A DNA stretch of 64,000 nucleotides from an uncultured Gemmatimonadales bacterium (GTDB lineage: Bacteria > Gemmatimonadota > Gemmatimonadetes > Longimicrobiales > RSA9): assembly GCA_963708135.1 (NCBI GenBank), contig OY970192.1:4800001-4864000 (forward strand), written 5' to 3'. Within the stretch, counting starts at the first letter, position 1. Each line of letters starts with the position of its first letter. Below are positions 2,117 to 48,990 of this stretch, in pieces. A program made the translations under genes and the position numbers. The notes beneath the pieces were generated by a model that was given only the letters and a program-made list of their open reading frames with translations, made no database searches and was not told the origin of the DNA.

Positions 2117-4684
2117 TCACCGCGCTCCCTCGATGACGAAGAGCTGAGACGTATACTGCAGAGCGTCGTACGCGTACACGCGTGGATCGTCCGCGAGCGT
2201 CACGGCAAAGATCTGGAGCATGCCGGGATCGGCTCGCGGCACCAGCGTCTCGAGGCGCTCCCGGTGCCCGGTCGTGATGTCGACCCGGTTGACGGGGATC
2301 GGCAGCGTGTCGGCGCGCCAGACCCAGATCGACTCCCCGTCCGGACTCCAGCGGATCAGACGATCCCTGGCGCGCAGACCGCTCACCAGCCGTGAGGAGC
2401 CATCCCGCAGGTCGTGCAGTCGGGCTCTGCCGCTTGCGCTGACCGTGAGCACCCGCTGCCCGTCAGGCGATGCCAGGCCTGCATCGACGCCACCGCTGGT
2501 CAGCGCGCGCCACTTGGTGTCGGACGCTGTACGGAAGAAGCACTGTGGGGTGCGTGAGCTGATCGTGCCGCATGCCAGGATCGAATCCTCGCCGGGTCCC
2601 CATACCTGGGCGTGGTCCAGCGCGCTGAAGGCGCCGAGATCCAGGCGTCGCGTGCCTCCCACACCCACGGGGTACAGGCGCAGCTGGGCGGGCGTGGTCG
2701 GAACGAGCGCAACCACCGAGCGTCCGTCGGGTGAGAAGCCCTCGACCGAACCCTCCCCCAGCCGAACCGCCGGAGAGCCATCGGTCTTCCGCACGATCGC
2801 GCCGTAATCCGCGCCAGCGGCCTCGCCGACGTCCTCGAGCCCGAGCAGGCGACCATCGCGCGACAGCTTGGGAAAGATCGAGCTGTCGAGCCAGGACAGG
2901 TCCATCTCGTCGCCGCCCCCCGGCGGACGGACGCGGATCCGGTGCCTCTTGCTGTCCCGCGTCGCCAGCCAGCGCCCGCCACGCGAGACATCCTGGATCG
3001 TCGTCATGCCCGGCGTCGCGATCGCGATGCGGGCGCCCCCGCGCAGGCTCGCCTCGTGGATCTGGAGGCCCGGTCCGGCATGGGCGGACGAGAAGAGGAC
3101 CAAGCGGCCATCGGCCGACCACGCGAGTCCCTCCTCCGCTTCGAATCCCGCCGCGAGCACCGTCCGGTGCCGCGCCCGGTCCACCACGTCCACCGATCCG
3201 CGGTCGTCGTATCGCGTGGGGTGCTCGAGGAACGCGAGTTGCTGCCCGTCAGGCGAGATGCGCAAGTCACTCAGGTATCCCGGCGCATCGTAGAGCAGCG
3301 TGCCGATCGGGTACTCGAGACGGTCGCGCCCGCCGACCTCGCGAATGATCGCGAGCGTCGTTCCATCCGGCGACCAGTCGGCCTCGCGCACGCTGTCGAG
3401 CATCTCGCGCGGCGTCCCGCCCTCGAGTGGCACGCGTGCCAGGGTGCCGACGAAGAGGCGGTGAGTCCCGAGGTAGTGCGCATGCGTGAGCAGGGCGAGC
3501 TCGCTGCGCGAGGAGACGGCCAGCAGATGCGTGTCGTCGAGGCCGAGTGGCCTCGCCTCGGGGTAGTCGGGACGCACCACGTACAGCGCGGGCACGCTCC
3601 CCTCCCGCGCCGCGTCGAAGACGACCGTCCGGCCGTCGGGGGCGAAGCGGGCGTTGAAGATCGCCTCGCTGGCGAACGTCACCTGGTGGTAAGCGACGCT
3701 CGCCTGCGCGGCGCGGTGGTGGTCCCCGACCAGGAACCCGGCCGCGGCGGTCGCAAGGAATGCGAGACCCCCGATGGCCAGCACTCCCCACCGCGCCCGA
3801 CGTCCGCCGCGCGACCCGGGACCAGCGCCGCGCAGGATCGGTTCTCCCGGGCGAATGAGCGCCTCGGCGAAGTCGCTCGCGGCGGCGAATCGATCCGCCG
3901 GCAGCTTCTCGAGCGCCTGCGCCACCGCCGCCTCCACGTGCGCCGGCACCGACTTCCGCTGCAGTGTGAGTGCGCGCGGCGATTCCGTCATCACGCGGGC
4001 GACGATGGCCTGCGCGTTGGGCCCGGTGAACGGGGCCTCGCCGGCGAGCATCTCGTAGGTCACCGCGCCCAGCGCGTAGACGTCCGCGCGGCCATCGATG
4101 CGCGTCTCGCCCATGGCCTGCTCCGGCGCCATGTACTGCGGCGTGCCGAGGGATAGCCCCGTCTGCGTCATGCGCGCCCCACCCGCGTACTCCACGGCGA
4201 GCGCGATCCCGAAATCCGCGACGAGCGCATGGCCGTTCTGCAGCAGGATGTTCTCGGGCTTGATGTCCCGGTGGATGACGCCCCGCTCGTGCGCGTACTG
4301 CAGCGCAACGGCGGCTTCGGTGGCGATGCGCAACACGTCCGCGATGGCGAGCTGCTTCTCCCGCTCGAGCCGCGCGCGCAGCGTCTCACCCTCCACGAAC
4401 GGCATCACGTAGTAGAGCAGCCCATTGGCCGAGCCCGAGTCGAAGAGCGGCAGGATGTGGGGGTGTTGCAGCGATGCCGTGAGCTCGATCTCCTTCAGGA
4501 ACCGCTCGGGCCCGAGAACCGCCGAAAGCTCAGCGTGCAGCACCTTGATCGCAACATTGCGATGGTGCCTCAGGTCCTCGGCCAGGTAGACGGTGGCCAT
4601 GCCGCCCGCGCCGAGCTCGCGCTCCACGCGGTAGCGCCCGGCCAGCTCCGTTTCCAGCCGCGCCAACAGCTCCGCGGTCGTCAT
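2117..4684 (-). CDS. Ser/Thr protein kinase, TM helix, C-terminal PD40/TolB-like beta-propeller
   Basis: Start ATG 4684 (MTTAELL) overlaps upstream TGA (ATGA); GAGGMATVY, VAIK, HRDIKPEN, DFG, GTPQYMAPEQ; SPDG repeats. Confidence 0.93.
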   Translation of the reverse strand: MTTAELLARLETELAGRYRVERELGAGGMATVYLAEDLRHHRNVAIKVLHAELSAVLGPERFLKEIELTASLQHPHILPLFDSGSANGLLYYVMPFVEGETLRARLEREKQLAIADVLRIATEAAVALQYAHERGVIHRDIKPENILLQNGHALVADFGIALAVEYAGGARMTQTGLSLGTPQYMAPEQAMGETRIDGRADVYALGAVTYEMLAGEAPFTGPNAQAIVARVMTESPRALTLQRKSVPAHVEAAVAQALEKLPADRFAAASDFAEALIRPGEPILRGAGPGSRGGRRARWGVLAIGGLAFLATAAAGFLVGDHHRAAQASVAYHQVTFASEAIFNARFAPDGRTVVFDAAREGSVPALYVVRPDYPEARPLGLDDTHLLAVSSRSELALLTHAHYLGTHRLFVGTLARVPLEGGTPREMLDSVREADWSPDGTTLAIIREVGGRDRLEYPIGTLLYDAPGYLSDLRISPDGQQLAFLEHPTRYDDRGSVDVVDRARHRTVLAAGFEAEEGLAWSADGRLVLFSSAHAGPGLQIHEASLRGGARIAIATPGMTTIQDVSRGGRWLATRDSKRHRIRVRPPGGGDEMDLSWLDSSIFPKLSRDGRLLGLEDVGEAAGADYGAIVRKTDGSPAVRLGEGSVEGFSPDGRSVVALVPTTPAQLRLYPVGVGGTRRLDLGAFSALDHAQVWGPGEDSILACGTISSRTPQCFFRTASDTKWRALTSGGVDAGLASPDGQRVLTVSASGRARLHDLRDGSSRLVSGLRARDRLIRWSPDGESIWVWRADTLPIPVNRVDITTGHRERLETLVPRADPGMLQIFAVTLADDPRVYAYDALQYTSQLFVIEGAR

Positions 4685-7395
4685 TGCCCGTCTCCGCCGC
4701 CGGACGCCTTGCCGGCGCTCGGGGCCGCGCGCAGCATCGCCGGCCAGCCGGTCACGACGTCGATCCGGTCCGCGACGCCATCGTCCTGCACCATCAGGAA
4801 GTGCCGGCCATCCGGCGCGACGTCGTACGGCGTCCAGCGGCCGTTGCGCACGTACTGGCCCGTGAACAGCTCCATCGGGCGGCCGAAGCGCGGGGGATCC
4901 CCCGCCGGATCGACCGGCACGGCGTACAGCGCCTCGCCGCTCACGAAGTAGATCTCGCGCCCGTCGCGCCGCCACAGCGGCGACGTGCCGCCCTGCAGCG
5001 AGATCTGCCAGCGGCCACCGCCATCCGGGTACGACCGCACGTAGATCTCGTTCCGCCCGCTCTCGTCGGACACGTACGCCAGCAGCCGGCCGTCGGGCGA
5101 GAGCATGGGCGAGAGCTCGCTCGCCGGCGTCGCCAGCACCGCGCGCGGCGTGTGGTCCGTCCCGCCCACGGGCACCGCGACGATGTCGAGGCCGGTCGCG
5201 GGCAACGTCTCCCGGAAGAGCAGTGTCTTCCCGTCGGGAGTGAAGGAGCTGGGGAAGCCGAGATAGACGCTGTTGACGAGCTGCTCGGCCGTGCCCGTTC
5301 CGTCCGCGCGGATCCAGAACGGCGCTGCACGGCCCGTCGTGCTCCCCCGCCGCGACGCGAAGGCGATCCGGTCGCCGGCGGGCGTCCAGACCGGGTAGAA
5401 GTTGTCCGACTGGAAGGTGAGGCGCGTCCGGCTCCCGCGCTCGAGGTCCAGCACCCAGATGTCGCGGGCGCCGCGCTGCTCGTCCGTCTGGGTGAAGGCG
5501 ATCCGATGGCCGTCGGGGGAGAACTTCGCGCTCTCGTACGCCCCGGGCTCCAGCGGTACCGGTTTCGCGGCGCCGGTACGGTCGACGAGCACCAGACTGC
5601 GGCGCGGCGTCCCCGCCGGCACATAGACGAGCACACCGGTCCGCGACACGGCGAAAGACGTCCCGTTCGGCCCCCCGCGGCCGCTTCGCAGCAGTGGGAT
5701 GGGAGTGCCGCGGACCATGCCGCGGCGCGCGTCGAACGGGACGGCCGAGACGGAGAGATCCTGGTCCTGGACCAGGAGGTAACCCGGTGCGGCATACTTC
5801 GCCGCGACGGCTCCGCCCAGCAGATCCGAGTGCCCGACATGGCTGCGCGCGCCTGTCCGCAGAGAGAGGAGCTGCAGCTTCGGCCCGCCGCCATCGTAGG
5901 CGAGGACGATCGCCGTGGCGCCGCCGGGGAGGATCTCCGGTCTCGCGAGCTTCACGGGGTGGCCGTCCGCGCGGCGCGGCCGCGCCAGCCGCAGGGGGGC
6001 AGGTGCGCCGCCGCCGCTCGCGACGCGGTACGCTCGACCGCCCTGCACGAAGAGGATCGTGCCGTCGTCGCCCCAGCTCATCCCGTCCAGGATCTCCGGG
6101 CCGCGGGGCAGGTGGCACAGGGTCAGCATGTGCCCGCTGGCGAGCTCGACCTTGCGCAGCTCGCCCGCGGCGACGAACGCGACCCACTGGCCATCCGGCG
6201 AGAACGTGGGAAAATCCGCACCTTCGGTACCCGGCACCGGCCGCGGCTCGGGGTCGGCCAGGTCGCGCTCGACGAGCTGCCGCTCGACCGAGCTCACCGC
6301 GAGGTAGACAATGCGGCGGCCGTCCGGCGAGATGGCGACGTCGTTCCCGACCGCGGTATGGACGTCCACCGGCTGCCCGCTGGGGAGCACCATGCGGAAG
6401 TGCACGGGAGCCGGTGTGGAGTCCGGCGCGGGGCGCCACCACCGTGCGGAGGCGAGCACCATGCCGGCGCCGAGCAGGGCGCCGGTCGCCGTGGCGAGCG
6501 CCAGCGGACGCCACACGTGGCGGCGCTGGCGCGAACGTGTCGGGCCGCCGAAGGGGAGCGGGGCAGTACCGGCCAGCGCGGTGCCGAATGCGGCGGGCGT
6601 GGGGAAGCGGTCGGCAGGGAGCTTCTCGAGCGCAGTGTGCACCGCGTGCTCCACCTGCGGCGGCACGGTCCGGCGCAGCTCGCCGAGCAGGCGCGGCGAT
6701 TCCGTCATCGCGCGGGCGATGATCGCCTGCGCGTTGGGCCCGGTGAACGGGGCCTCGCCGGCGAGCATCTCGTACGTGACCGCGCCGAGCGCGTAAACGT
6801 CCGCCCGGCCGTCGATGCGCGCCTCGCCCATGGCCTGTTCGGGCGCCATGTACTGCGGCGTGCCCAGGCTCAGCCCCGTCTGCGTGAGACGGCTCCCGCC
6901 CGCCTGCTCCACCGCGAGCGCGATCCCGAAGTCGGCGACGAGCGCGTGGCCGTTCTGCAGCAGGATGTTCTCGGGCTTGACGTCCCGGTGGATGACGCCC
7001 CGCTCGTGCGCGTACTCGAGGGCGTCGGCGACCTCCGCCGCGATCCGCACGGCGTCGCTCACCGGCAGCTGCCGCTCCCGCTCGAGCCGCGCGCGCAGCG
7101 TCTCACCGTCCACGAACGGCATCACGTAATAGAGCAGGCCGTCGGCCGAGCCGGAGTCGAAGAGCGGCAGGATGTGCGCGTGCTGCAGGCTGGCGGTGAG
7201 CTCGATCTCCTTCAGGAAGCGCTCGGGGCCGAGCATGGCCGAGAGCTCCGGATGCAGCACCTTGATGGCGACGCGGCGGTGGTGCCGTACGTCCTCCGCG
7301 AGCCAGACCGTGGACATGCCGCCCGCGCCGAGCTCGCGCTCGAGGCTGTAGCGCCCCGCGAGGGCGGCAGCGAGCGACGGCTGAGCGGACGTCAC
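4681..7395 (-). CDS. Ser/Thr protein kinase, TM helix, PD40/TolB-like beta-propeller
   Basis: GTG 7395 with GGGGAGG SD and GTGA overlap; all kinase motifs; multiple SPDG repeats. Confidence 0.93.
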   Translation of the reverse strand: MTSAQPSLAAALAGRYSLERELGAGGMSTVWLAEDVRHHRRVAIKVLHPELSAMLGPERFLKEIELTASLQHAHILPLFDSGSADGLLYYVMPFVDGETLRARLERERQLPVSDAVRIAAEVADALEYAHERGVIHRDVKPENILLQNGHALVADFGIALAVEQAGGSRLTQTGLSLGTPQYMAPEQAMGEARIDGRADVYALGAVTYEMLAGEAPFTGPNAQAIIARAMTESPRLLGELRRTVPPQVEHAVHTALEKLPADRFPTPAAFGTALAGTAPLPFGGPTRSRQRRHVWRPLALATATGALLGAGMVLASARWWRPAPDSTPAPVHFRMVLPSGQPVDVHTAVGNDVAISPDGRRIVYLAVSSVERQLVERDLADPEPRPVPGTEGADFPTFSPDGQWVAFVAAGELRKVELASGHMLTLCHLPRGPEILDGMSWGDDGTILFVQGGRAYRVASGGGAPAPLRLARPRRADGHPVKLARPEILPGGATAIVLAYDGGGPKLQLLSLRTGARSHVGHSDLLGGAVAAKYAAPGYLLVQDQDLSVSAVPFDARRGMVRGTPIPLLRSGRGGPNGTSFAVSRTGVLVYVPAGTPRRSLVLVDRTGAAKPVPLEPGAYESAKFSPDGHRIAFTQTDEQRGARDIWVLDLERGSRTRLTFQSDNFYPVWTPAGDRIAFASRRGSTTGRAAPFWIRADGTGTAEQLVNSVYLGFPSSFTPDGKTLLFRETLPATGLDIVAVPVGGTDHTPRAVLATPASELSPMLSPDGRLLAYVSDESGRNEIYVRSYPDGGGRWQISLQGGTSPLWRRDGREIYFVSGEALYAVPVDPAGDPPRFGRPMELFTGQYVRNGRWTPYDVAPDGRHFLMVQDDGVADRIDVVTGWPAMLRAAPSAGKASGGGDGQ

Positions 7396-10073
7396 CGCTG
7401 CGCCTCCCCCGCCGCGAGCAGTGCGCGCCACTGGTTGACGAAAACGACGTGCGCCCTTCCCGGCCCGGCGTCCCGCCTCTCGAGCATCAGGAAGTCGCCT
7501 CCGGGCAGCACGTCGTAGGCGACGGCGCCGAGGCCCTGTTCGAAGCGATCCATGGAGAAGAGGGCGCGGCGGGAGCGCACGGTGAATCCGCCCGCGGTCG
7601 TCACCTCGGCGGCCATGAGGCTCTCACCGCCGAGGTAGAACAGCTCGCGGCCGTCGAGGGACCAGCGGGGCGTCCTTCCGCCGCCGACAGAGACTTGCCA
7701 GAGATCGGCGCGCGACGGGTCGGTGGACCGCACCTACACTTCGCCCGCGGACACGTACGCCAACCAGCGCCCGTCGGGCGAGGGACTGGGGGAGTGGACG
7801 CGCGCCGGCAAGGCGATGATCACCCGGTCGGCGGCGGCGGGCTGATCGAGGGCGTGCGCGTAGATGGCGCTCCGGCCCGGCCGGAATCTCAGGTAGTAGA
7901 GCGTACGCCCGTCCGCCGAGGGTGCCGGGGCTCCGAGGTTGGTCGCCGTATCACGCACGATGCTGCGCGGGGGCGATGCGCTGCCCACGGTCGCCTGGAA
8001 GATCTCGGCCCCCTGGGCATTGTTGGCGGCGAAGAACAGGGTGCGGCCGTCGGCGCTGAAGGCCGGATCGCTCGTCACGGTCGTGGGGACCGTGATCCGG
8101 CTGGCGGCGCCGCTGCGCAGATCGCGCACCAGGATGTCCCAGGTGCCGAGCTCGACCGAGGCCGCTGCATGAGTGCCATCGGGCGAGGCCGCGACGTCGC
8201 GTGCGTACCCCACCCACGTGGAGTCGAGGAACGGCACGGCACCGTTGCGGCGGACGCGCGCGAAGCTCAGCCGCGGCGTATGCGAGCCACCCGTCGCGTA
8301 CACGAGCTGCCCGGTCCGCGCGACGGCGATCTGCGGGAACGCACCGGCGTCGATCGTGGTCGCTGTCACAATCGGCACCGGCGGGCCCGTGAGACGGCGC
8401 TTTGCCGCGTCGAAAGGCGCAGCCACCAGCGTGCTGTCGGGCCGCACCACGAGGAGGTATCCGGGCTCCACGTAGCGGGCCCAGAAGCCGGGCATGAGCA
8501 CGCGGTGTCGCCCCGTGGCCGGATCGGACACGGCGATGCGGAAGCGCGAGTTGTCGCCGTAGTTGCGCGGCACCACGACGAACAGGATCGCGTTGCCGCC
8601 GGGGAGCGGGCTGCCGCCGGTGTGGAAGACCTCGCCGGCAACGGTATCCAGGCTGGTGACCTGCTCCCACGCGCCGCCGCGCACCGGCACCCGCACGATT
8701 CCGGAGTGGCCGCTGATGAGCAGGTGGTCGTTGTCATCCCATTCGATCACCGAATAGCTGGGCAGCGTGTCGGTCACCGTCGTGACGGGTCCGCCGGTGG
8801 GCGACACCAGGCGAAGCGTGTGGCCGGCAACGAATGCGACCTGGCGTCCGTCCGGCGAGACCGCCGGGTAGCTCGCGCTGTCGGTTCTCGGCAGCGGGCG
8901 CGGATCGAGCGCGTCAGCGTCCCGCACCCAGAGCTCGGGTCCTCCCGACGCGTGCGCCACGTACACGAGCCTCGATCCGTCCGGCGACAGCGCGAAGGAG
9001 CCTTCGGGCGGCGCGCTGTCCGGGAACGAAAGCGTCGCAAGCCACGGCCGGCCGGCGGCGGCCGCAGCGCCGACGCGGTCGGCGGCCACCCTGCCCCAAC
9101 CCCACACCGCCGCCACGACGGCCGCGATGGCGACCGCACCGGCGACGATCGCAGGGCGGTTCCGTCGCCAGCCGGGCGCCGTTCCCGCGCCGGGCCATGC
9201 GGCGGACCCTGGCGTCACGAGCGCGGTCGCGAACTCGCCGGCGCTGCCGAAGCGGTCGGCCGGGAGCCTTTCCAGTGCGGTCCGCACCGCCGCGTCCACC
9301 TGCGCGGGAACACGCCGGCGCAGGAGCGTCAGCGGCCGCGGCTCGGCGGTGAGCACCTGGGCCAGGATGGCCTGCGCGGTGGGACCGGTGAACGGCGGCT
9401 CGCCGGCGAGCATCTCGTAGGTGACGGCCCCGAGCGCATAGATGTCGGCGCGCGGCCCGACGGTGAGCTCCCCCGTCGCCTGCTCGGGAGCCATGTACTG
9501 CGGCGTACCCAGCGAGAGACCGGTCTGCGTCAGGCGCGAGCCGCCCGCCTGCTGTACGGCGAGCGCGATGCCGAAATCCGCCACGAGCGCGTGGCCGTTC
9601 TGCAGCAGGATGTTCTCGGGTTTCACGTCCCGGTGCACCACGCCGCGCTCGTGTGCATACTCGAGGGCGTCAGCGACCTCCGCCGCGATGCGCACGCCGT
9701 CGCTCACCGGCAGCTGGCGCTCGCGCTCGAGCCGCGCGCGCAGCGTCTCGCCCTCCACGAAGGGCATGACGTAGTAGAGCAGACCGTCGGCGCTTCCGGA
9801 GTCGAACAGCGGCAGGATGTGCGGGTGCTGCAGGCTGGCGGTGAGCTCGATCTCCTTCAGGAACCGCTCGGGGCCGAGCATGGCCGAGAGCTCGGGGTGC
9901 AGCGCCTTGATGGCGACACGGCGGTGGTGCCGCACGTCCTCGGCGAGCCAGACCGTGGCCATGCCGCCGGCGCCGAGCTCGCGCTCGATGCGGTAGCGGC
10001 CCGCGAGGGCGCCGGCGAGGCCGGTGGGCTCAAGCACTCGGGCCGAGCCCCCGCCACGCACGGCAACGCCCAC
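7392..10073 (-). pseudogene. Ser/Thr kinase with beta-propeller, interrupted by in-frame TAG at 7734-7736
   Basis: ORFs 7734..10073 and 7392..7733 are contiguous in one frame: AYVSAGEV*VRST; paralogs read EIYVRS/EVYVRP here; start may be GTG 10037. Confidence 0.85.
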
Positions 10074-10220
10074 GAGCGATTGGCTGGGCCATCGCTCCTC
10101 CGTCGGTCGGCAAGATTGGGATGGATTGTGGGAAAGACTCCGAGCTCATTCGGGGCCAGCAAAGAGCATAGCGGGAAGTCACGCGGGGGGCAACGCCGCC
10201 GTGGCCGGGCTATAGCATGG

Positions 10221-10781
10221 TCACGTGCCGCTACTCGCCGGCATGGCGCGGTCGTCCCCCTGGTCCACCAGGTATAATGCCGTCCCGATGATCGCGCCCG
10301 CCAACGCGTTCGCGAGCAGAACGCGAGGCAGCCCCAGCACGTCGAGGGCGACCGGCGTGTCCGCGAACCAGAGGACCAGGTAGAGAAGGCCCGTGCACGT
10401 GACGCTCGTGTATGCAACACCGCCGGCGAGGGACCTCCAGAAGCCCGACCCGTTCAGCACGAGGGCGGCGCTCGCGCCGACCGCCGCGAAGACCGTCACG
10501 TGCACGACGGTATATGCGAGGATTTCGAGGGGCAGGAGGAAGTAGGAGCCAAGCGACCCCGCTGCTCCCGAGCCGGCGCTCCCTCCACTGAACAACGCCG
10601 ACGCGAGCGCCGCCGGGACGGTGAGCGGGTGCAGAGCCAACGCTCCCTGCAGGAAGAACAGGGCCGCGACGGCGACGGCGCCGAGCAGCCCGCCGGCCGC
10701 CCCCGCCTGCACACGGTGCAGGTATCTCGTGACACTGCCGGGCCGGTTCGCGGCGGACGGCCGAACGCGATGTTCGTTCAT
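10221..10781 (-). CDS. Hypothetical integral membrane protein
   Basis: GGAGG SD before ATG; about 4 hydrophobic segments. Confidence 0.7.
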   Translation of the reverse strand: MNEHRVRPSAANRPGSVTRYLHRVQAGAAGGLLGAVAVAALFFLQGALALHPLTVPAALASALFSGGSAGSGAAGSLGSYFLLPLEILAYTVVHVTVFAAVGASAALVLNGSGFWRSLAGGVAYTSVTCTGLLYLVLWFADTPVALDVLGLPRVLLANALAGAIIGTALYLVDQGDDRAMPASSGT

Positions 10782-10908
10782 GAGCCGGATCCTCCGTTCA
10801 TTGCAGTTTCGCCAGCGGAGCGAGCCGCCACCTGGCGACGTTCAATTGCTCGCGATGCTGAGGATCCCCGGGGGCGCTCGAGATGCCCGCAGACGCTACC
10901 GCCGCCGC

Positions 10909-11080
10909 TCAGCGCGAGGCTTCCGCGATGAGCTCGTCCTCAAACGTGAAGTCGAGGTCTCGCCCAGGCGCCTGGCTGGCGTACCACTCGGTCGTACGCC
11001 AGGTCGAAGACAGCGTCGAAGCGGCGGCCGGCGAGGGCGCGCTGCACGGACGGGGGATCGTTGCGGTCGGCCACGGCGTT
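10909..11080 (-). pseudogene. Internally deleted remnant of an NAD-dependent epimerase/dehydratase-like gene
   Basis: ADRNDPPSVQRALAGRRFDAVFDLAYD joined out of frame at about 10990 to EWYASQAPGRDLDFTFEDELIAEASR*. Confidence 0.55.
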
Positions 11081-11226
11081 CGGGATCAGGAAATCCAAGC
11101 GCTGTTTGCGGCTACTCTCGAAGGATGGGCCGTGTACGGAGAGCGGGGCAAGGGGCAAGGCCGCGCGGGGCGGGGAGGTCGGCGACGCTGCTCCCGGCGG
11201 AGGGATCGCGGGGGCGGCGGCACGCC

Positions 11227-11399
11227 AACGGCGGGACATTAACGGCGGCACATTAACGGCGGCACATTGACGGCGGCACATTGACGGCGGCACCACCTGC
11301 CAGCGGCGGCACCTCAACGGCGGCACGTTAACGGCGGCACGTTAACGGCGGCACGTTAACGGCGGCACATTAGGAGCGGCACCTCGACGGCGGTAATGA
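11227..11399 (+). repeat. Tandem array of about 12 x 14-bp units, consensus AACGGCGGCACRTT
   Basis: Units read directly, e.g. 11241, 11255, 11316, 11330, 11344, 11358. Confidence 0.95.
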
Positions 11400-11475
11400 C
11401 GGGTGGGGGTGCGGGGCGGGAGGGATTGGCGCGGGGGGCTATCGCAATGCCCCGATCGTGCAGCGATCCTGGAGG

Positions 11476-11823
11476 ATGAGCTTTGAGCGGCTACGGGTCT
11501 ACCAGGCGGCTGAGCGGCTGGACGCGGAGGTGCAGGCGTTGATCGCACGGCTTGCGCCGGGATTCAGCAGGGACGTCAACCAGCTTCGGCGGGCGGCGGG
11601 ATCCGTCCTTTACAACATCGCCGAGGCGTACGGCTCCGAGCAACCGGGCCGGAAGCGCAACCATCTCGAAATTGCACGCGGCTCCGTGGATGAGACCCGG
11701 GCGATCGTGCGCCGGCTGGCCGCCTCCGGCGCGTTCCCGCTCCGCGCGACGTTCCCGGCGACCGGCCTCGCCGTCACGATCGCGAAGATGCTCACGTCCT
11801 GGATCCGTACCCTCCCGCCCTGA
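11476..11823 (+). CDS. Four helix bundle protein (23S rRNA IVS protein / Avd-like family)
   Basis: GGAGG SD; FERLRVYQAA...NQLRRAAGSVLYNIAEAYG...HLEIARGSVDET signature; 115 aa. Confidence 0.9.
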   Translation: MSFERLRVYQAAERLDAEVQALIARLAPGFSRDVNQLRRAAGSVLYNIAEAYGSEQPGRKRNHLEIARGSVDETRAIVRRLAASGAFPLRATFPATGLAVTIAKMLTSWIRTLPP

Positions 11824-11845
11824 CCGCCCCGCCCCCCACCCCGCA

Positions 11846-11962
11846 GTTCCGCCGTTGTTGTGCCGCAGTTGCCTGTGCCGAAGTACATGTGCCGAAGTTC
11901 ATGTGCCGAAGTTCATGTGCCGCAGTCGAAGTGCCGCAGTCGAAGTGCCGCAGTCTGCCGTC
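11846..11962 (+). repeat. Tandem array of about 8 x 14-bp units (GTGCCGAAGTTCAT / GTGCCGCAGTCGAA), inverted relative to the 11227-11399 array
   Basis: Units at 11875, 11889, 11903, 11917, 11931, 11945; core GTGCCG is the reverse complement of CGGCAC. Confidence 0.93.
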
Positions 11963-11999
11963 CCCCCCGTCTTTTTGGCGACTTCCGGCAGGATCCGAG

Positions 12000-12632
12000 C
12001 TAATGGCCGGACCGGCTGAAGCGCTGGACGATCCGGGCGCCGCGGGCCTGGCTGATCTCGGGAGGCGTCAGGGTGACGCCAGGGACGGACATCCCGGGAT
12101 TCATCAGGTCGTGGATATCGCCCTGGTGCTCCAGCCCGAGGAGATGCCCGAATTCGTGCGCGAGGCCGTTGTCGTTGGCGGCGTCGCCGACCGCGCAGAC
12201 GCCCAGGCGCTCGACGGCCGCACCAGCTTCGCTGCCGACGAAGCGACGGACGAGCAGGAGGCTCACGGAATCGTGCATGGGAAAGCTCGCCGCCAGCATC
12301 AGGAACCCCTGGTCGTCGAGCGCCTCGGATCCATGCGGCGCCTCGGTGTGGTCGGTGGTGGTCCTGCGGACCTGGAACTCGATATCGGCAGCGCCGAAGA
12401 TCCGGTTCACTTCGTGGAGCGACTGCGTGAGGGCGGCCGGCGTACGGGTGGTCGAGATCTCGCGCGTGCGCATGACCCGCTCGTGCTGCACACGCGTTTG
12501 GCGGCCGACCTGCACGTTGCGCGCGACGATCTCCGGCGTGGAAACGGTCAGCGTAATGAAGTGAGCGTGAACGGGTATCACGACCATGTCTACCTCCATC
12601 TCGACATGTGGCGGCTCTTGCGCCTCGCTCAC
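12000..12632 (-). CDS. Metzincin/matrixin-like zinc metalloprotease
   Basis: HEFGHLLGLEH plus Met-turn DLMNP; GTGA overlap with pepT stop. Confidence 0.75.
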   Translation of the reverse strand: MSEAQEPPHVEMEVDMVVIPVHAHFITLTVSTPEIVARNVQVGRQTRVQHERVMRTREISTTRTPAALTQSLHEVNRIFGAADIEFQVRRTTTDHTEAPHGSEALDDQGFLMLAASFPMHDSVSLLLVRRFVGSEAGAAVERLGVCAVGDAANDNGLAHEFGHLLGLEHQGDIHDLMNPGMSVPGVTLTPPEISQARGARIVQRFSRSGH

Positions 12633-13894
12633 ATCCCTTCGGCGAAGAGCTGCACGAGGTTAAGGATGGTGCATGCCGACTGGGCCAGCACGCGGGTGGA
12701 GATCCACTCCGAGGGCCCGTGGAAGTCAACGCCGCCCGCGAAGATGTTGGGCGTGGGCATGCCCATCTCGGTCAGCCGGGAGCCGTCCGTCCCCCCGCGG
12801 ATGGGCTCGAGCCTGGGGGTGATCCCCGCGGCACGCACCGCCTCCTCCAGCTTCCTGGTCACGTCGGGGTGGCGGCTCAGCACGTCGTACATGTTCCGGT
12901 ACTGCTTCGTGATCTCGACCTTCACGTCGAGGCGGGGCTCCTCGGCCATGAGCCCGGCGCACATGCGCTCCAGCCTGCGGCCCCGCTCCTCGAGGACCTT
13001 CGTGTCGAAGTCGCGCAGGATCATCTGCACGCTGCAGGAGGCCGCATCGCCTGACGCCGCGACGGGGTGGTAGAAGCCTTCCCGCGCGTCCGTCGTCTCG
13101 GGCGCCTCGCCCATGGGCAGCCGGTCCAGGAGCTTCCCCATCCAGGTGAGGGCGTTCACCATCTTGCCGCGCGCCGTGCCGGGATGCACGGAGACGCCGG
13201 TGAAGGTGACCACGGCCTTGTCGGCGGAGAAGGTCTCCACGTTGATCTCGCCCGTGAAGCTGCCGTCGATGGTGAAGGCCAGTGCACAGTCGAAGCGCTC
13301 CAGGGGGAAGCGGTCGGCGCCCCGGCCGATCTCCTCGTCGGGGTTGAAGCACACGCGCACCACGGGCCGCCGGACCTCCGGCTGCTGCACCAGGATCTCG
13401 AGCGCGCCCATGATGGCCGCGATCCCCGCCTTGTCGTCGGCACCGAGCAGCGTCGTCCCGTCGGTGGTGATGATGGTGTCGCCGATGCACTGCTTCAGCT
13501 CAGGCGTGTCGGCCGGGTCCAGGACGACGCCGTGGCCCACCTCGATCGCTCCGCCGTCGTACTGCTGAAGGATCTGCGCTCTCACGCCGGTGCCGGTGAA
13601 CTGCGGTGCCGTGTCGATGTGGGCGCAGAGGCCGATCCGCCCCGGTGCCGTGCCGGGGAGCTCCGCCAGGACGTAGCCATTCTCGTCCATCGAGACCTCG
13701 GCCTCGCCCACGCCCCGGAGTCCCAGCTCCTTCAGCTCGTCCACCAGGCGACGCGCCAGCTCGAGCTGCTTCGCGGTGCTCGGGCACGTTTCGCTGGCTT
13801 CGTCCGACTGCGTATCGAGGCGCACGTAGTCGAGGAGGCGCTCCACGATGCGGGTCCGGCTCAGGACGACGGAGGGGTCATCGAAGGCGAGCAT
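12629..13894 (-). CDS. pepT: Peptidase T (M20B tripeptidase)
   Basis: AHIDTA, TTDGTTLLGADDKAG, PDEEIGRG, HPGTARGKMVNA, PIRGGTDG, FHGPSEW. Confidence 0.95.
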   Translation of the reverse strand: MLAFDDPSVVLSRTRIVERLLDYVRLDTQSDEASETCPSTAKQLELARRLVDELKELGLRGVGEAEVSMDENGYVLAELPGTAPGRIGLCAHIDTAPQFTGTGVRAQILQQYDGGAIEVGHGVVLDPADTPELKQCIGDTIITTDGTTLLGADDKAGIAAIMGALEILVQQPEVRRPVVRVCFNPDEEIGRGADRFPLERFDCALAFTIDGSFTGEINVETFSADKAVVTFTGVSVHPGTARGKMVNALTWMGKLLDRLPMGEAPETTDAREGFYHPVAASGDAASCSVQMILRDFDTKVLEERGRRLERMCAGLMAEEPRLDVKVEITKQYRNMYDVLSRHPDVTRKLEEAVRAAGITPRLEPIRGGTDGSRLTEMGMPTPNIFAGGVDFHGPSEWISTRVLAQSACTILNLVQLFAEGM

Positions 13895-14001
13895 TATGCG
13901 CTCCCGTGGTTGAAAGGGCAGATGATAGTGGCGCCACGGCGGCCGGGAGGGGAAATTAGGGAGCCACCCACCCGGCGATCCACGGACCCAGGGAAACGAA
14001 C

Positions 14002-15501
14002 ATGACGACAGCGGCGCAGGCGCCCTCGCGGACGAGGGGATTCACCACCCTCTTCCTCATCGAGCTGTGGGAGAGGTTCGGCTACTACGGCATGACGGCG
14101 GTGGTCGTGCTGTTCATGGTACAGCAGCTCGGCTACACGGACGACCGTGCCAACCTCACGTTCGGCGCCTTCGCGGCACTCGCCTACACCGTTCCGGCGG
14201 TCGGCGGCTGGATCGGCGACAAGCTGCTGGGCAGCCGGCGCACGATGCTGCTCGGCGCGCTGACGCTGGCGCTCGGCTACATCGGCCTCGCGATTCCGAA
14301 CCACCCCGGCCTGCTCTTCCCCGCGCTGGCCATCGTGGCCGTCGGCGGCGGCGTCTTCAAGGCCAACCCCGCCAACATGATCTCGAAGCTGTACGAGGGC
14401 GACTCCGCCAAGATCGACAGCGCGTTCACCATGTACTACATGGCGGTCAACATCGGTGCGACCGCGTCGCAGCTCGCGACGCCGCTCATCGCGGTCAAGG
14501 TGGGATGGCACGTCGCGTTCGCGGTGTCCGCTGGCGGCCTCGTCGTCGGCATCGTGAACTACCTCGCGATGAGCCGCTATCTCAGCCACGTGGGCTCCGC
14601 GCCGGACTTCCAGCCCCTCAATGTGACTCGCCTCGTCCTGGTGGTCGGCGGAATGATCGCGGGCATCGTGCTCGTGTCGTTCATCATTCAGAATCTCGCC
14701 GTCGCACGGGGCACCGTCGTGCTCGGGTTCTTCACCATGCTCGCCATCTTCGGGTTCATGATGAAGCGTGGCAGCGAGCGCGAGCGCAAGGGGCTCATCG
14801 CCGTGCTGATCCTGACGGGCCTCGGCATGCTCTTCTTCATCTTCTACCAGCAGATGTCGACGTCGCTCACACTCTTCTCGCTGCGCAACGTGGACCTCGA
14901 CTTCTTCGGCTACCACGTCCCCGCCGGGCAGGTCCAGGCGCTGAACCCCATCTGGATCTTCATCCTGAGCCCGGGGCTCGCCTGGCTCTACACCAGTCTC
15001 GGCAAGGGGAAGGGCGGAGACTTCCACATCTCCACGAAATTCGCGATGGGCTTCGCCGTGCTTAGTCTCGGGTTCTTCATCTACGGATTCAGCGGTCACT
15101 TTGCCAGCGCGGGCAAGATCTCGTTCTGGTGGATGATCACGGGCTATGGCTTCCAGTCGGTGGGAGAGCTCCTCATCAGCGGTCTCGGCCTCGCGGTCGT
15201 CGCGCGCTACGTCGGCCCGTCGCTGCGCGGCTTCATCATGGGCGTCTGGTTCCTCGCGACCGGAATCTCCCAGTACCTCGGGAGCTACGTCGCGACGTTC
15301 GCGAGCGTGCCCAGGGACGTGACGAGCCCCGTCGCCACGCTGCCGCTCTATACGAACCTGTTCACGAGGCTTGGCATCGTGGCCCTGATCGGAACCGCGA
15401 TCGCCGCCGCGCTGGTCCCGACGATGAAGAAGCTGTCGGCCGTGAGCGAAGGGCCGTGGGAGGAGGCGGCCATTGCCCGCACGGCCCCGGTGGAGGCCTG
15501 A
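14002..15501 (+). CDS. POT/PTR family proton-dependent oligopeptide transporter
   Basis: ELWERFGYYGM, GGWIGDKLLG, FTMYYMAVNIG; many TM segments. Confidence 0.95.
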   Translation: MTTAAQAPSRTRGFTTLFLIELWERFGYYGMTAVVVLFMVQQLGYTDDRANLTFGAFAALAYTVPAVGGWIGDKLLGSRRTMLLGALTLALGYIGLAIPNHPGLLFPALAIVAVGGGVFKANPANMISKLYEGDSAKIDSAFTMYYMAVNIGATASQLATPLIAVKVGWHVAFAVSAGGLVVGIVNYLAMSRYLSHVGSAPDFQPLNVTRLVLVVGGMIAGIVLVSFIIQNLAVARGTVVLGFFTMLAIFGFMMKRGSERERKGLIAVLILTGLGMLFFIFYQQMSTSLTLFSLRNVDLDFFGYHVPAGQVQALNPIWIFILSPGLAWLYTSLGKGKGGDFHISTKFAMGFAVLSLGFFIYGFSGHFASAGKISFWWMITGYGFQSVGELLISGLGLAVVARYVGPSLRGFIMGVWFLATGISQYLGSYVATFASVPRDVTSPVATLPLYTNLFTRLGIVALIGTAIAAALVPTMKKLSAVSEGPWEEAAIARTAPVEA

Positions 15502-48103: not shown

Positions 48104-48487
48104 TCAGCTCTCCAGCTCACCCACGAGCAGGCGGTGTGACGCACGGACGCGGCGGTCCAGCGTGCAGAGCGGCACCCGCCGCGCCTCGCTGTGCGCGGCC
48201 AGGAATCGGTCGAATGGATCGCGCGTCCACGAGAGCGGCAGCGCCTTCTCCACGAGGGCCACCAGGGGCACCTCGTCCACCACGAACCGGGGATCCGCGG
48301 CCACGGCGCGCGTGAACGCGGGCTGCCGAACCTCCAGACGGCCGACCTCGGCCAGGAACTGGATCTCCAGGAAGGACACGGGAGAGATGCCCCACGGGCG
48401 GTATCCGTCTAGCCACGGAAACTCCTTCAGGCGCTCGGCCCCGAGGACCGTCCAGAGGAGGAAGTGCGTGTCCAGCAGGATCTTCAC
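48104..48487 (-). CDS. vapC: PIN-domain (VapC) toxin
   Basis: ILLDTHFLLW, SFLEI, RDPFDRFLAA, TLD; GTGA overlap. Confidence 0.92.
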   Translation of the reverse strand: MKILLDTHFLLWTVLGAERLKEFPWLDGYRPWGISPVSFLEIQFLAEVGRLEVRQPAFTRAVAADPRFVVDEVPLVALVEKALPLSWTRDPFDRFLAAHSEARRVPLCTLDRRVRASHRLLVGELES

Positions 48488-48732
48488 CCCTCCGGCTCCA
48501 GGTCCTCGGCGTCCTCGGACCACGTCCAGCCCCACCGATCCGCCTCCTCCAGCCCGGGCACGCGCAGGAGCGAAGCGTAGTCCGGGAGGTCGCCCGCCTC
48601 TCTCGCGTCCGGCTCCCGCCGCAGCACGATGCGACGTCCCCCACGCTCGATGCACACCACCGCTCCCGCGGCCACCTCGTCGAGCAGCCGGAACCAGTTC
48701 CTGCGGGCCTCGCTGGCCGTCACGCGTTTCAT
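48484..48732 (-). CDS. Phd/YefM-family antitoxin
   Basis: MKRVTASEARRNWFRLLDEVAAG..IERGG. Confidence 0.85.
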   Translation of the reverse strand: MKRVTASEARRNWFRLLDEVAAGAVVCIERGGRRIVLRREPDAREAGDLPDYASLLRVPGLEEADRWGWTWSEDAEDLEPEG

Positions 48733-48747
48733 GTGTACAATGTACAA
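48733..48747 (-). promoter_or_regulatory. Tandem TGTACA operator overlapping a -10 box (TACATT)
   Basis: TGTACA at 48734 and 48741; -10 lies 6 nt before the ATG. Confidence 0.65.
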
Positions 48748-48990
48748 CTGGACCGCGGCCGCGGCAAGACCCCCGATCACCGTCGCCGCGGGTTCGAGCC
48801 ATTCCGAGCCCCGCCGGTGCGTCTGCACCCCGGGCTTCGTATCCATGGCGGTCATCCGGCGCGCTCCTCGTTGGTCAGGTACACTCTCGTACGATGCTTG
48901 GCGATGGCTGTAAGGCGGACAATGTCGGCGGCATCCGCGGGCGGAGCGATAGCGGAATCGGCCACCCAGCGGCGACGCGGGGGCTTTTGG

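Follow-up and report, generated by a model that had tools for sequence, protein, structure and literature searches.

The locus described here raises the question of what two mutually inverted arrays of 14-nt units, 13 on the left and 8 on the right, are doing around a gene of the PF05635 family, and whether they act in RNA or in DNA. A sequence-only reading of the window (the whole stretch of 64,000 nucleotides that was analysed) had counted about 12 and about 8 such units and proposed a self-contained RNA hairpin with the gene in its loop, built like the RNase III-excised intervening sequences (IVS) of some 23S rRNAs.

Anatomy of the cassette and its protein

The whole cassette measures about 760 bp (Table 1). 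The left units lie at 11210-11395, with a single 19-nt irregularity, and the right units at 11846-11954, and the C-run that ends the right arm pairs with the G-run of the left arm. These counts bear out the sequence-only reading, whose two quoted units match at 11 of 14 positions as it stated, and the inner inverted pair that it had placed against the stop codon proved complementary at 17 of 20 ungapped positions. Between the arms, stretches of 64-77 nt reach 70-77% complementarity in many registers; the arm-vs-arm score is 104, where the 95th percentile of between-locus cross-pairs is 44. Folded as RNA, 11200-11970 reached -422.6 kcal/mol (z -7.29), lower than any of 20 shuffles, and its terminal inverted repeats build a stem with the ORF in the loop, as had been proposed. 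Folded as DNA, both strands form structures, at -229.7 and -211.6 kcal/mol. The two arms differ in sequence, with ACGG on the left and ACTG or ACTT on the right, and the systematic difference between arms to which the earlier reading had drawn attention recurs in 6 of the 8 arm pairs of the host genome (one further pair shows it partially and one lacks it).

Table 1. Features of the cassette and the adjoining downstream gene (window positions)
Feature	Position	Strand	Description
Left arm	11208..11395	+	G-run, then 13 tandem 14-nt units, core ACGGCGGCAC
Inner inverted repeat, left half	11400..11419	+	Non-periodic, G-rich
Predicted promoter	11427..11470	+	TGGC-N7-GCTAT 11427-11442; TGCCCC 11448-11453; -10-like hexamer 11465-11470
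PF05635/TIGR02436 four-helix-bundle gene	11476..11823	+	115 aa, pI 11.0
Inner inverted repeat, right half	11824..11843	+	Immediately 3' of the stop codon
Right arm	11846..11967	+	8 tandem 14-15-nt units, core GTGCCG(C/A)AGT, then C-run
Convergent host gene, outside the cassette	12000..12632	-	Weak Peptidase_M10 match below cut-off; downstream of pepT

Protein genes lie on both flanks of the cassette, the upstream neighbour oriented away from it and the convergent downstream gene ending with its stop codon 46 nt from the last right-array unit. Scans of 10780-12100 for sigma-70 consensus promoters and intrinsic terminators found neither. An Rfam scan of 9000-15000 returned no rRNA match and two matches far below their gathering scores, on which a structured RNA family was rejected. 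On the minus strand at 10991-11068 is a 26-aa fragment, 58% like another gene of the host genome (E 0.038), which we take to be epimerase remnant-like; it may be a scar beside the left arm. Elsewhere in the window, 2117-10073 of the minus strand holds three tandem, ordinary-looking Ser/Thr-kinase-like genes with propeller-like C-termini.

The assignment of the gene to the four-helix-bundle family was upheld, the product scoring 54.3 bits against both PF05635 (cut-off 33.8) and TIGR02436 (cut-off 24), and the predicted structure consists of four helices (pLDDT 94.8). The model matches BT_0352 and, at TM 0.82-0.89, Xcc0516 (2GSC chains); its match to Avd is weaker, with a TM of about 0.8 to the Avd chains and 16-17% sequence identity. 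Structures of PF05635 proteins have been solved since 2006, and the available part of PMC4990558 gives no known function for them. The family resembles Avd (PMC10053308), a positively charged pentamer that binds RNA (10.1101/2023.10.23.563531), and the homopentameric state is known for both Xcc0516 and Avd (PMC4990558; 10.1101/2023.10.23.563531). The cassette protein is thus like the Avd of DGR systems in fold and strongly basic character; however, no template or variable repeat was seen at the locus, and a search of the host genome (97.65% complete) for PF00078 found no reverse transcriptase; a DGR was rejected on this result. The description of the element as free of rRNA and of reverse transcriptase therefore holds.

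Arms, genes and repeat words across genomes

The host genome, of 5.45 Mb, contains 11 PF05635 matches and a twelfth, decayed copy, most of them accompanied by tandem arrays of their own unit that are often inverted across the gene. Inverted flank similarity exceeded the 99th percentile of 600 random genes (so that random genes score 1% by construction) in 7 of the 11. For a wider comparison, 138 loci yielded 133 matches and 112 distinct genes, from which 14 with a flank shorter than 300 nt were dropped, leaving 98 homologues. Inverted flanks rose above the 95th percentile of cross-pairs in 75 of these 98 and direct flanks in 18, and the best arm pairing was with the gene's own partner in 58. 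A PF05635 gene with inverted arms, which the sequence-only reading had put forward as a self-contained unit, is accordingly a recurring cassette.

The arms carry a word that goes with the protein. A core of ACKKCG / CGMMGT in units of 13-15 nt occurs in 23 of 28 rows of one branch of the protein family (SH-aLRT 85 in a quick maximum-likelihood tree) and in 0 of 33 rows of another, in which the commonest units are of 6 nt, and the core label requires 7 changes on the tree against 24.6 when shuffled. Both types of repeat word are found within single genomes, and the word therefore follows the protein and not the host. Within the arms of the clade, position three of the core mostly alternates between G and T (locus-weighted 9.2 and 7.5 of 20), position two between C and A; at neither position does the variation run by transitions, a pattern that might reflect read-out of the duplex by the protein.

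The repeat family of the 11210-11954 arrays forms 30 arrays across the host genome, 28 of them outside called genes, and it is shared by the closest paralogue (82% identical) and by the decayed copy, both at unrelated loci. Ahead of one solo array lies DNA that is 77% similar, over 75 nt, to the leader of the 82% paralogue, and this leader-like DNA suggests that the array was left when the gene was lost from a full cassette. Arrays of the family with 15-nt units also lie in frame within a tRNA-synthetase-like gene at 5271885-5271954 of the host contig, presumably glnS by sequence type, and at the start of another ORF at 1170736-1170880. At 2369145-2370793 of the same contig, about 1.3 kb of inserted DNA interrupts a PF05635 copy, whose arms and promoter are kept.

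Another way to view the arms is as independent REP-like minisatellites at gene ends, serving termination or mRNA protection, with a competence-regulated gene hitchhiking in some arm pairs. A PF05635 gene or remnant adjoins only 6 of the 30 arrays, leaving 24 without one; the outer array end falls within 70 nt of a host stop codon in 16 of 30 (a hand count on crude gene calls); six arm pairs of the host genome are gene-less; and in genome G443 the gene inside a related arm pair is not PF05635 but an ordinary small membrane-protein gene, related arms also occurring there as an empty pair. Arrays spread genome-wide without regard to the gene had been named by the sequence-only reading as a finding that would tell against it, and to this extent they exist, but they are abundant mainly together with the cognate clade. 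Triple-core arrays are bimodal across 73 family genomes, and a gene of the cognate clade is present in 14 of 17 array-rich against 7 of 56 array-poor genomes, where the clade comprises the branch and a small sister group with the same core (the branch alone gives 12 of 17) and related genomes are not independent counts; a reversed control pattern is also frequent in three array-rich genomes, the host genome included. This co-occurrence, the agreement of repeat word with protein clade within and across genomes, the arms around 7 of 11 PF05635 genes against 1% of random genes and the lack of a terminator-like site at 10780-12100 all stand against independent minisatellites, which we regard as rather unlikely to be the explanation.

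The organisation does resemble that of REPIN/RAYT systems, in which a gene is flanked by inverted repeats of its own word (PMC3337134), in that gene-less inverted pairs and solo copies are dispersed between genes and co-occur with the gene family, and in that hairpins are expected in single strands. REPINs are described, in the part of PMC3337134 available, as inverted non-autonomous pairs thought to use the RAYT. However, a search of the host genome for PF01797 (the REP-associated Y1/HUH transposase) did not find it, and a RAYT was rejected on this result; moreover, the cassette protein is a four-helix bundle without known catalytic activity, the units form non-palindromic tandem arrays, and predicted expression is tied to competence, as described below.

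Empty orthologous sites were sought in relatives. No homologue of the downstream neighbour was found in 72 relatives, neither of two tests in another genus turned up a clean empty allele, and a junction in G443:C120 is rearrangement-like.

RNA or DNA as the site of action

According to the IVS-like model, a transcript running over both arms folds into a long stem, this stem is then cut out or processed, and the repeats in the RNA are bound by the protein. Consistent with this are the strength of the RNA fold (z -7.29), the binding of RNA by Avd (10.1101/2023.10.23.563531) and the 23S IVS of Coxiella burnetii, which is excised by RNase III and has the same protein family and stem-loop layout (PMC4990558); minus-strand read-through from pepT could, in addition, cover both arms as antisense RNA. 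In the Coxiella S23p element, too, terminal inverted repeats enclose a PF05635 gene as their loop, and short tandem repeats stand before its ORF (PMC4990558). The cassette, however, is intergenic and not in rRNA; its arms are 14-nt arrays of more than 100 bp, whereas the Coxiella stem is of 28 bp and cut by RNase III (PMC4990558, in the part available); and it has its own predicted promoter inside an arm, in a host family without detected RNase III.

A search for RNase III (PF14622) was positive in 0 of 73 family genomes, with the control positive in 8 of 14. At this locus, as in 61 of 65 cassettes, the left arm contains the predicted promoter (of the remaining cassettes, 3 have it overlapping the arm and 1 outside), such that the gene's own mRNA would lack the left arm. 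RNase III-dependent excision of the IVS kind was rejected on these grounds, and the RNA-hairpin and RNase III model of the sequence-only reading is not supported. Neither is there a strand bias: the sense-strand duplex is the more stable one in only 43 of 73, and the G.A mismatch falls on the sense strand at 11 loci and on the other strand at 9, with 1 tie (21 scorable, p 0.82), while the arms of some homologues pair without a G.A mismatch at all. The proposal that the mismatches are maintained thus survives for the gene-bearing arm pairs of the host genome, where the sense-strand G.A mismatch holds, but not as a sense-strand rule for the family. The orientation of the upstream neighbour, away from the cassette, and the lack of any Rfam match at gathering score also count against an RNA element, which we consider distinctly improbable. 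Taken together, the absence of strand bias, the promoter within the arm, the failure to detect RNase III and the folding of both strands argue that the arms probably act at the DNA level. The failure to find RNase III in any of the 73 family genomes raises, in its own right, the question of how rRNA is matured in them.

We conclude that this is a recurrent cassette that is related to ORF-bearing IVS and organised like REPIN/RAYT, and that is a member of neither.

The predicted promoter motif and natural competence

A motif search on 109 PF05635 leaders reached a log-likelihood of 560, compared with 79 for shuffled input, and returned a motif summarised as YGNC-N7-GCYAT-N5-TGCCC-N12-ATNNT. The matrix anchors 75 of 107 leaders, those of the host genome having been removed before training, and with this matrix the predicted promoter of the cassette scores 30.1 bits; after it, a leaderless start at the ATG of the PF05635 gene is probable. 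The motif is present at 9 of the 12 held-out PF05635 genes and remnants of the host genome. In that genome 61 sites score above 18 bits, where each of four column-shuffled matrices yields 0-1; with the threshold at 15 bits there are 73 sites, of which 66 are intergenic (background 20%).

Sites precede miaB-comEC (26.5 bits), a pilin operon (25.0), bamD-nadD-secA-radC (23.9), a PilB-type ATPase (20.9), comM (20.6), yraN (19.3) and comF (15.6). In other family genomes (the best 30 loci per search, host excluded), the motif lies before comM in 27 of 29 and before yraN in 22 of 29, the antisense strand giving 0. Core roles in natural transformation have been published for comM, yraN, comEC, comFC and dprA (PMC13663708), and since the cassette shares its upstream motif with the DNA-uptake genes of the host, it is likely to be expressed during natural competence. 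The set recalls the CRP-S regulons of gammaproteobacteria, which include com genes, pilins, dprA, radC, ssb and comM (PMC1635313), and the toxTA module of Haemophilus, horizontally acquired and under the host's competence promoter (10.1101/633164); unlike either, the present system has a different motif, and the cassette has arms and many dispersed copies.

The regulon has its weak spots, in that the dprA operon site scores 11.2 bits, within the range of shuffled matrices, recA scores 6.3, comEA has no site, and sites also stand before housekeeping first genes (miaB, bamD and a dihydroorotase-like gene). Sites before recQ, two ssb, one integron-like integrase and four IS91-type transposase copies, and the four WYL domains at two loci of the host genome, would fit a response to DNA damage or single-stranded DNA (driven, for example, by a WYL activator), with the cassette spreading by way of repair recombination. 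This is highly improbable given the sites at uptake genes (the comEC operon, comF, pilins and the PilB-type ATPase), the weak recA score and the lexA leaders, 0 of 2 of which carry the motif in the host genome and 0 of 30 in relatives (best 30 loci). The lexA and recA results also led us to reject a LexA (SOS) regulon.

Other families of the phylum provide a separate line of evidence. In two of them (f4 and f5), the motif at comM and yraN is another one, equally spaced from the -10 element; the first matrix reaches 12 bits in 0 of 28 comM and 0 of 30 yraN leaders there, and exceeds 5 bits in 0 of 30 PF05635 leaders. When a matrix was built from the comM and yraN leaders of those families, 13 of 25 PF05635 leaders from the same families exceeded the 95th percentile of background, against 0 of 25 in antisense and only 5 of the 107 in the first set. 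Each matrix thus fits mainly the PF05635 leaders of its own group, a double dissociation from which it follows that the cassette promoter tracks the motif of its host. A de novo search of the f4 PF05635 leaders alone was not clearly above shuffled input (86.8 against 76.1), and in f4 the PF05635 signal emerged only once the matrix built from comM and yraN leaders was applied. On these sequence comparisons, the PF05635 promoter is very probably of the competence type. The two motifs, one in the host family and another with the same spacing in f4/f5, also mark candidate competence regulons.

The motif is not confined to uptake genes and PF05635. It precedes five Uma2, four AbiEi-nuclease (AbiEi-DUF559) and two GxxExxY-type genes, at which arms are found in 0 of 5, 1 of 4 and 1 of 2 cases; since these other small genes use the motif without arms, the promoter does not require them, and we rejected the notion that arms are a general package of all motif-driven genes, as mostly they are not. 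Several further sites are worth recording. Upstream of a weakly Phd/YefM-like gene in the window is a second site (48484-48967, minus strand, 23.0 bits). On the host contig, sites of 19.7, 12.7 and 23.0 bits at 3951703-3954831 accompany a sigma-54 activator without obvious sensor domain, three peptides of 61-64 aa without Pfam match and a CAAX protease; together these may make up a bacteriocin-like locus that is linked to competence. A DUF4160 gene pair with a site of 21.4 bits lies between two opposite-strand WYL genes at 481888-484523. At 3227729-3235399, a comEA-like gene and two pilus ATPases come immediately downstream of a PF05635 gene with about 3 kb of repeats; both this PF05635 copy and its comEA-like neighbour are without the motif.

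A competence promoter would also be expected if the protein were a competence-phase modulator, either an inhibitor that limits curing of the chromosome or a host accessory factor binding single-stranded DNA, with the arms of minor importance. Mobile elements are known to suppress transformation (PMC12378983), the acquired toxin-antitoxin pair of Haemophilus is under competence control, and the protein is basic (pI 11). Such a role leaves unexplained both the retention of arms around 75 of 98 genes and the match of word to clade, and we think it improbable.

Our preferred reading, to which we hold tentatively and which may well prove wrong, is that of a competence-expressed cassette whose arms form a hairpin in single-stranded transforming DNA and not an RNase III-cut RNA. 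The motif would be the promoter of the competence regulon. Transforming DNA enters single-stranded, in which state the arms would pair and bring the host flanks together, and flanks joined in this way would make the insert easier to acquire, or harder to remove, by host recombination (RecA, DprA, ComM, YraN). The basic, Avd-like protein would bind the cognate arm core, in trans as well, and if it does so, the arm pairs that lack a gene and the solo arrays would represent non-autonomous copies and remnants. First entry into a new site is left unexplained by this competence-cassette model. A bolder extension, possible but doubtful in our view, is that PF05635 cassettes at large are transposase-free selfish elements that spread by natural transformation and take the competence promoter of their host, the hairpin hiding their length from recombination and the pentamer reading the word of its clade and supporting gene-less copies, with the rRNA IVS as a special case that landed in 23S rRNA.

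Within its incomplete coverage, supplements aside, our literature search found no description of the arms or of a link to competence, and it found none of competence motifs for these two groups of the phylum; the accessible portion of a 2025 review of competence and mobile elements contains neither 'four helix' nor 'hairpin' (PMC12378983). The candidate competence motifs for the two groups are a by-product of the analysis. A motif common to comM, yraN and comEC says when PF05635 proteins are likely to be made, and so opens the way to direct experiments, and the cassettes offer an origin for otherwise unexplained minisatellite arrays. Deletion of inserts by transformation is more efficient than their acquisition (PMC13663708, in the part available), and if the competence-cassette reading is true, small insertions could beat this deletion bias without a recombinase of their own.
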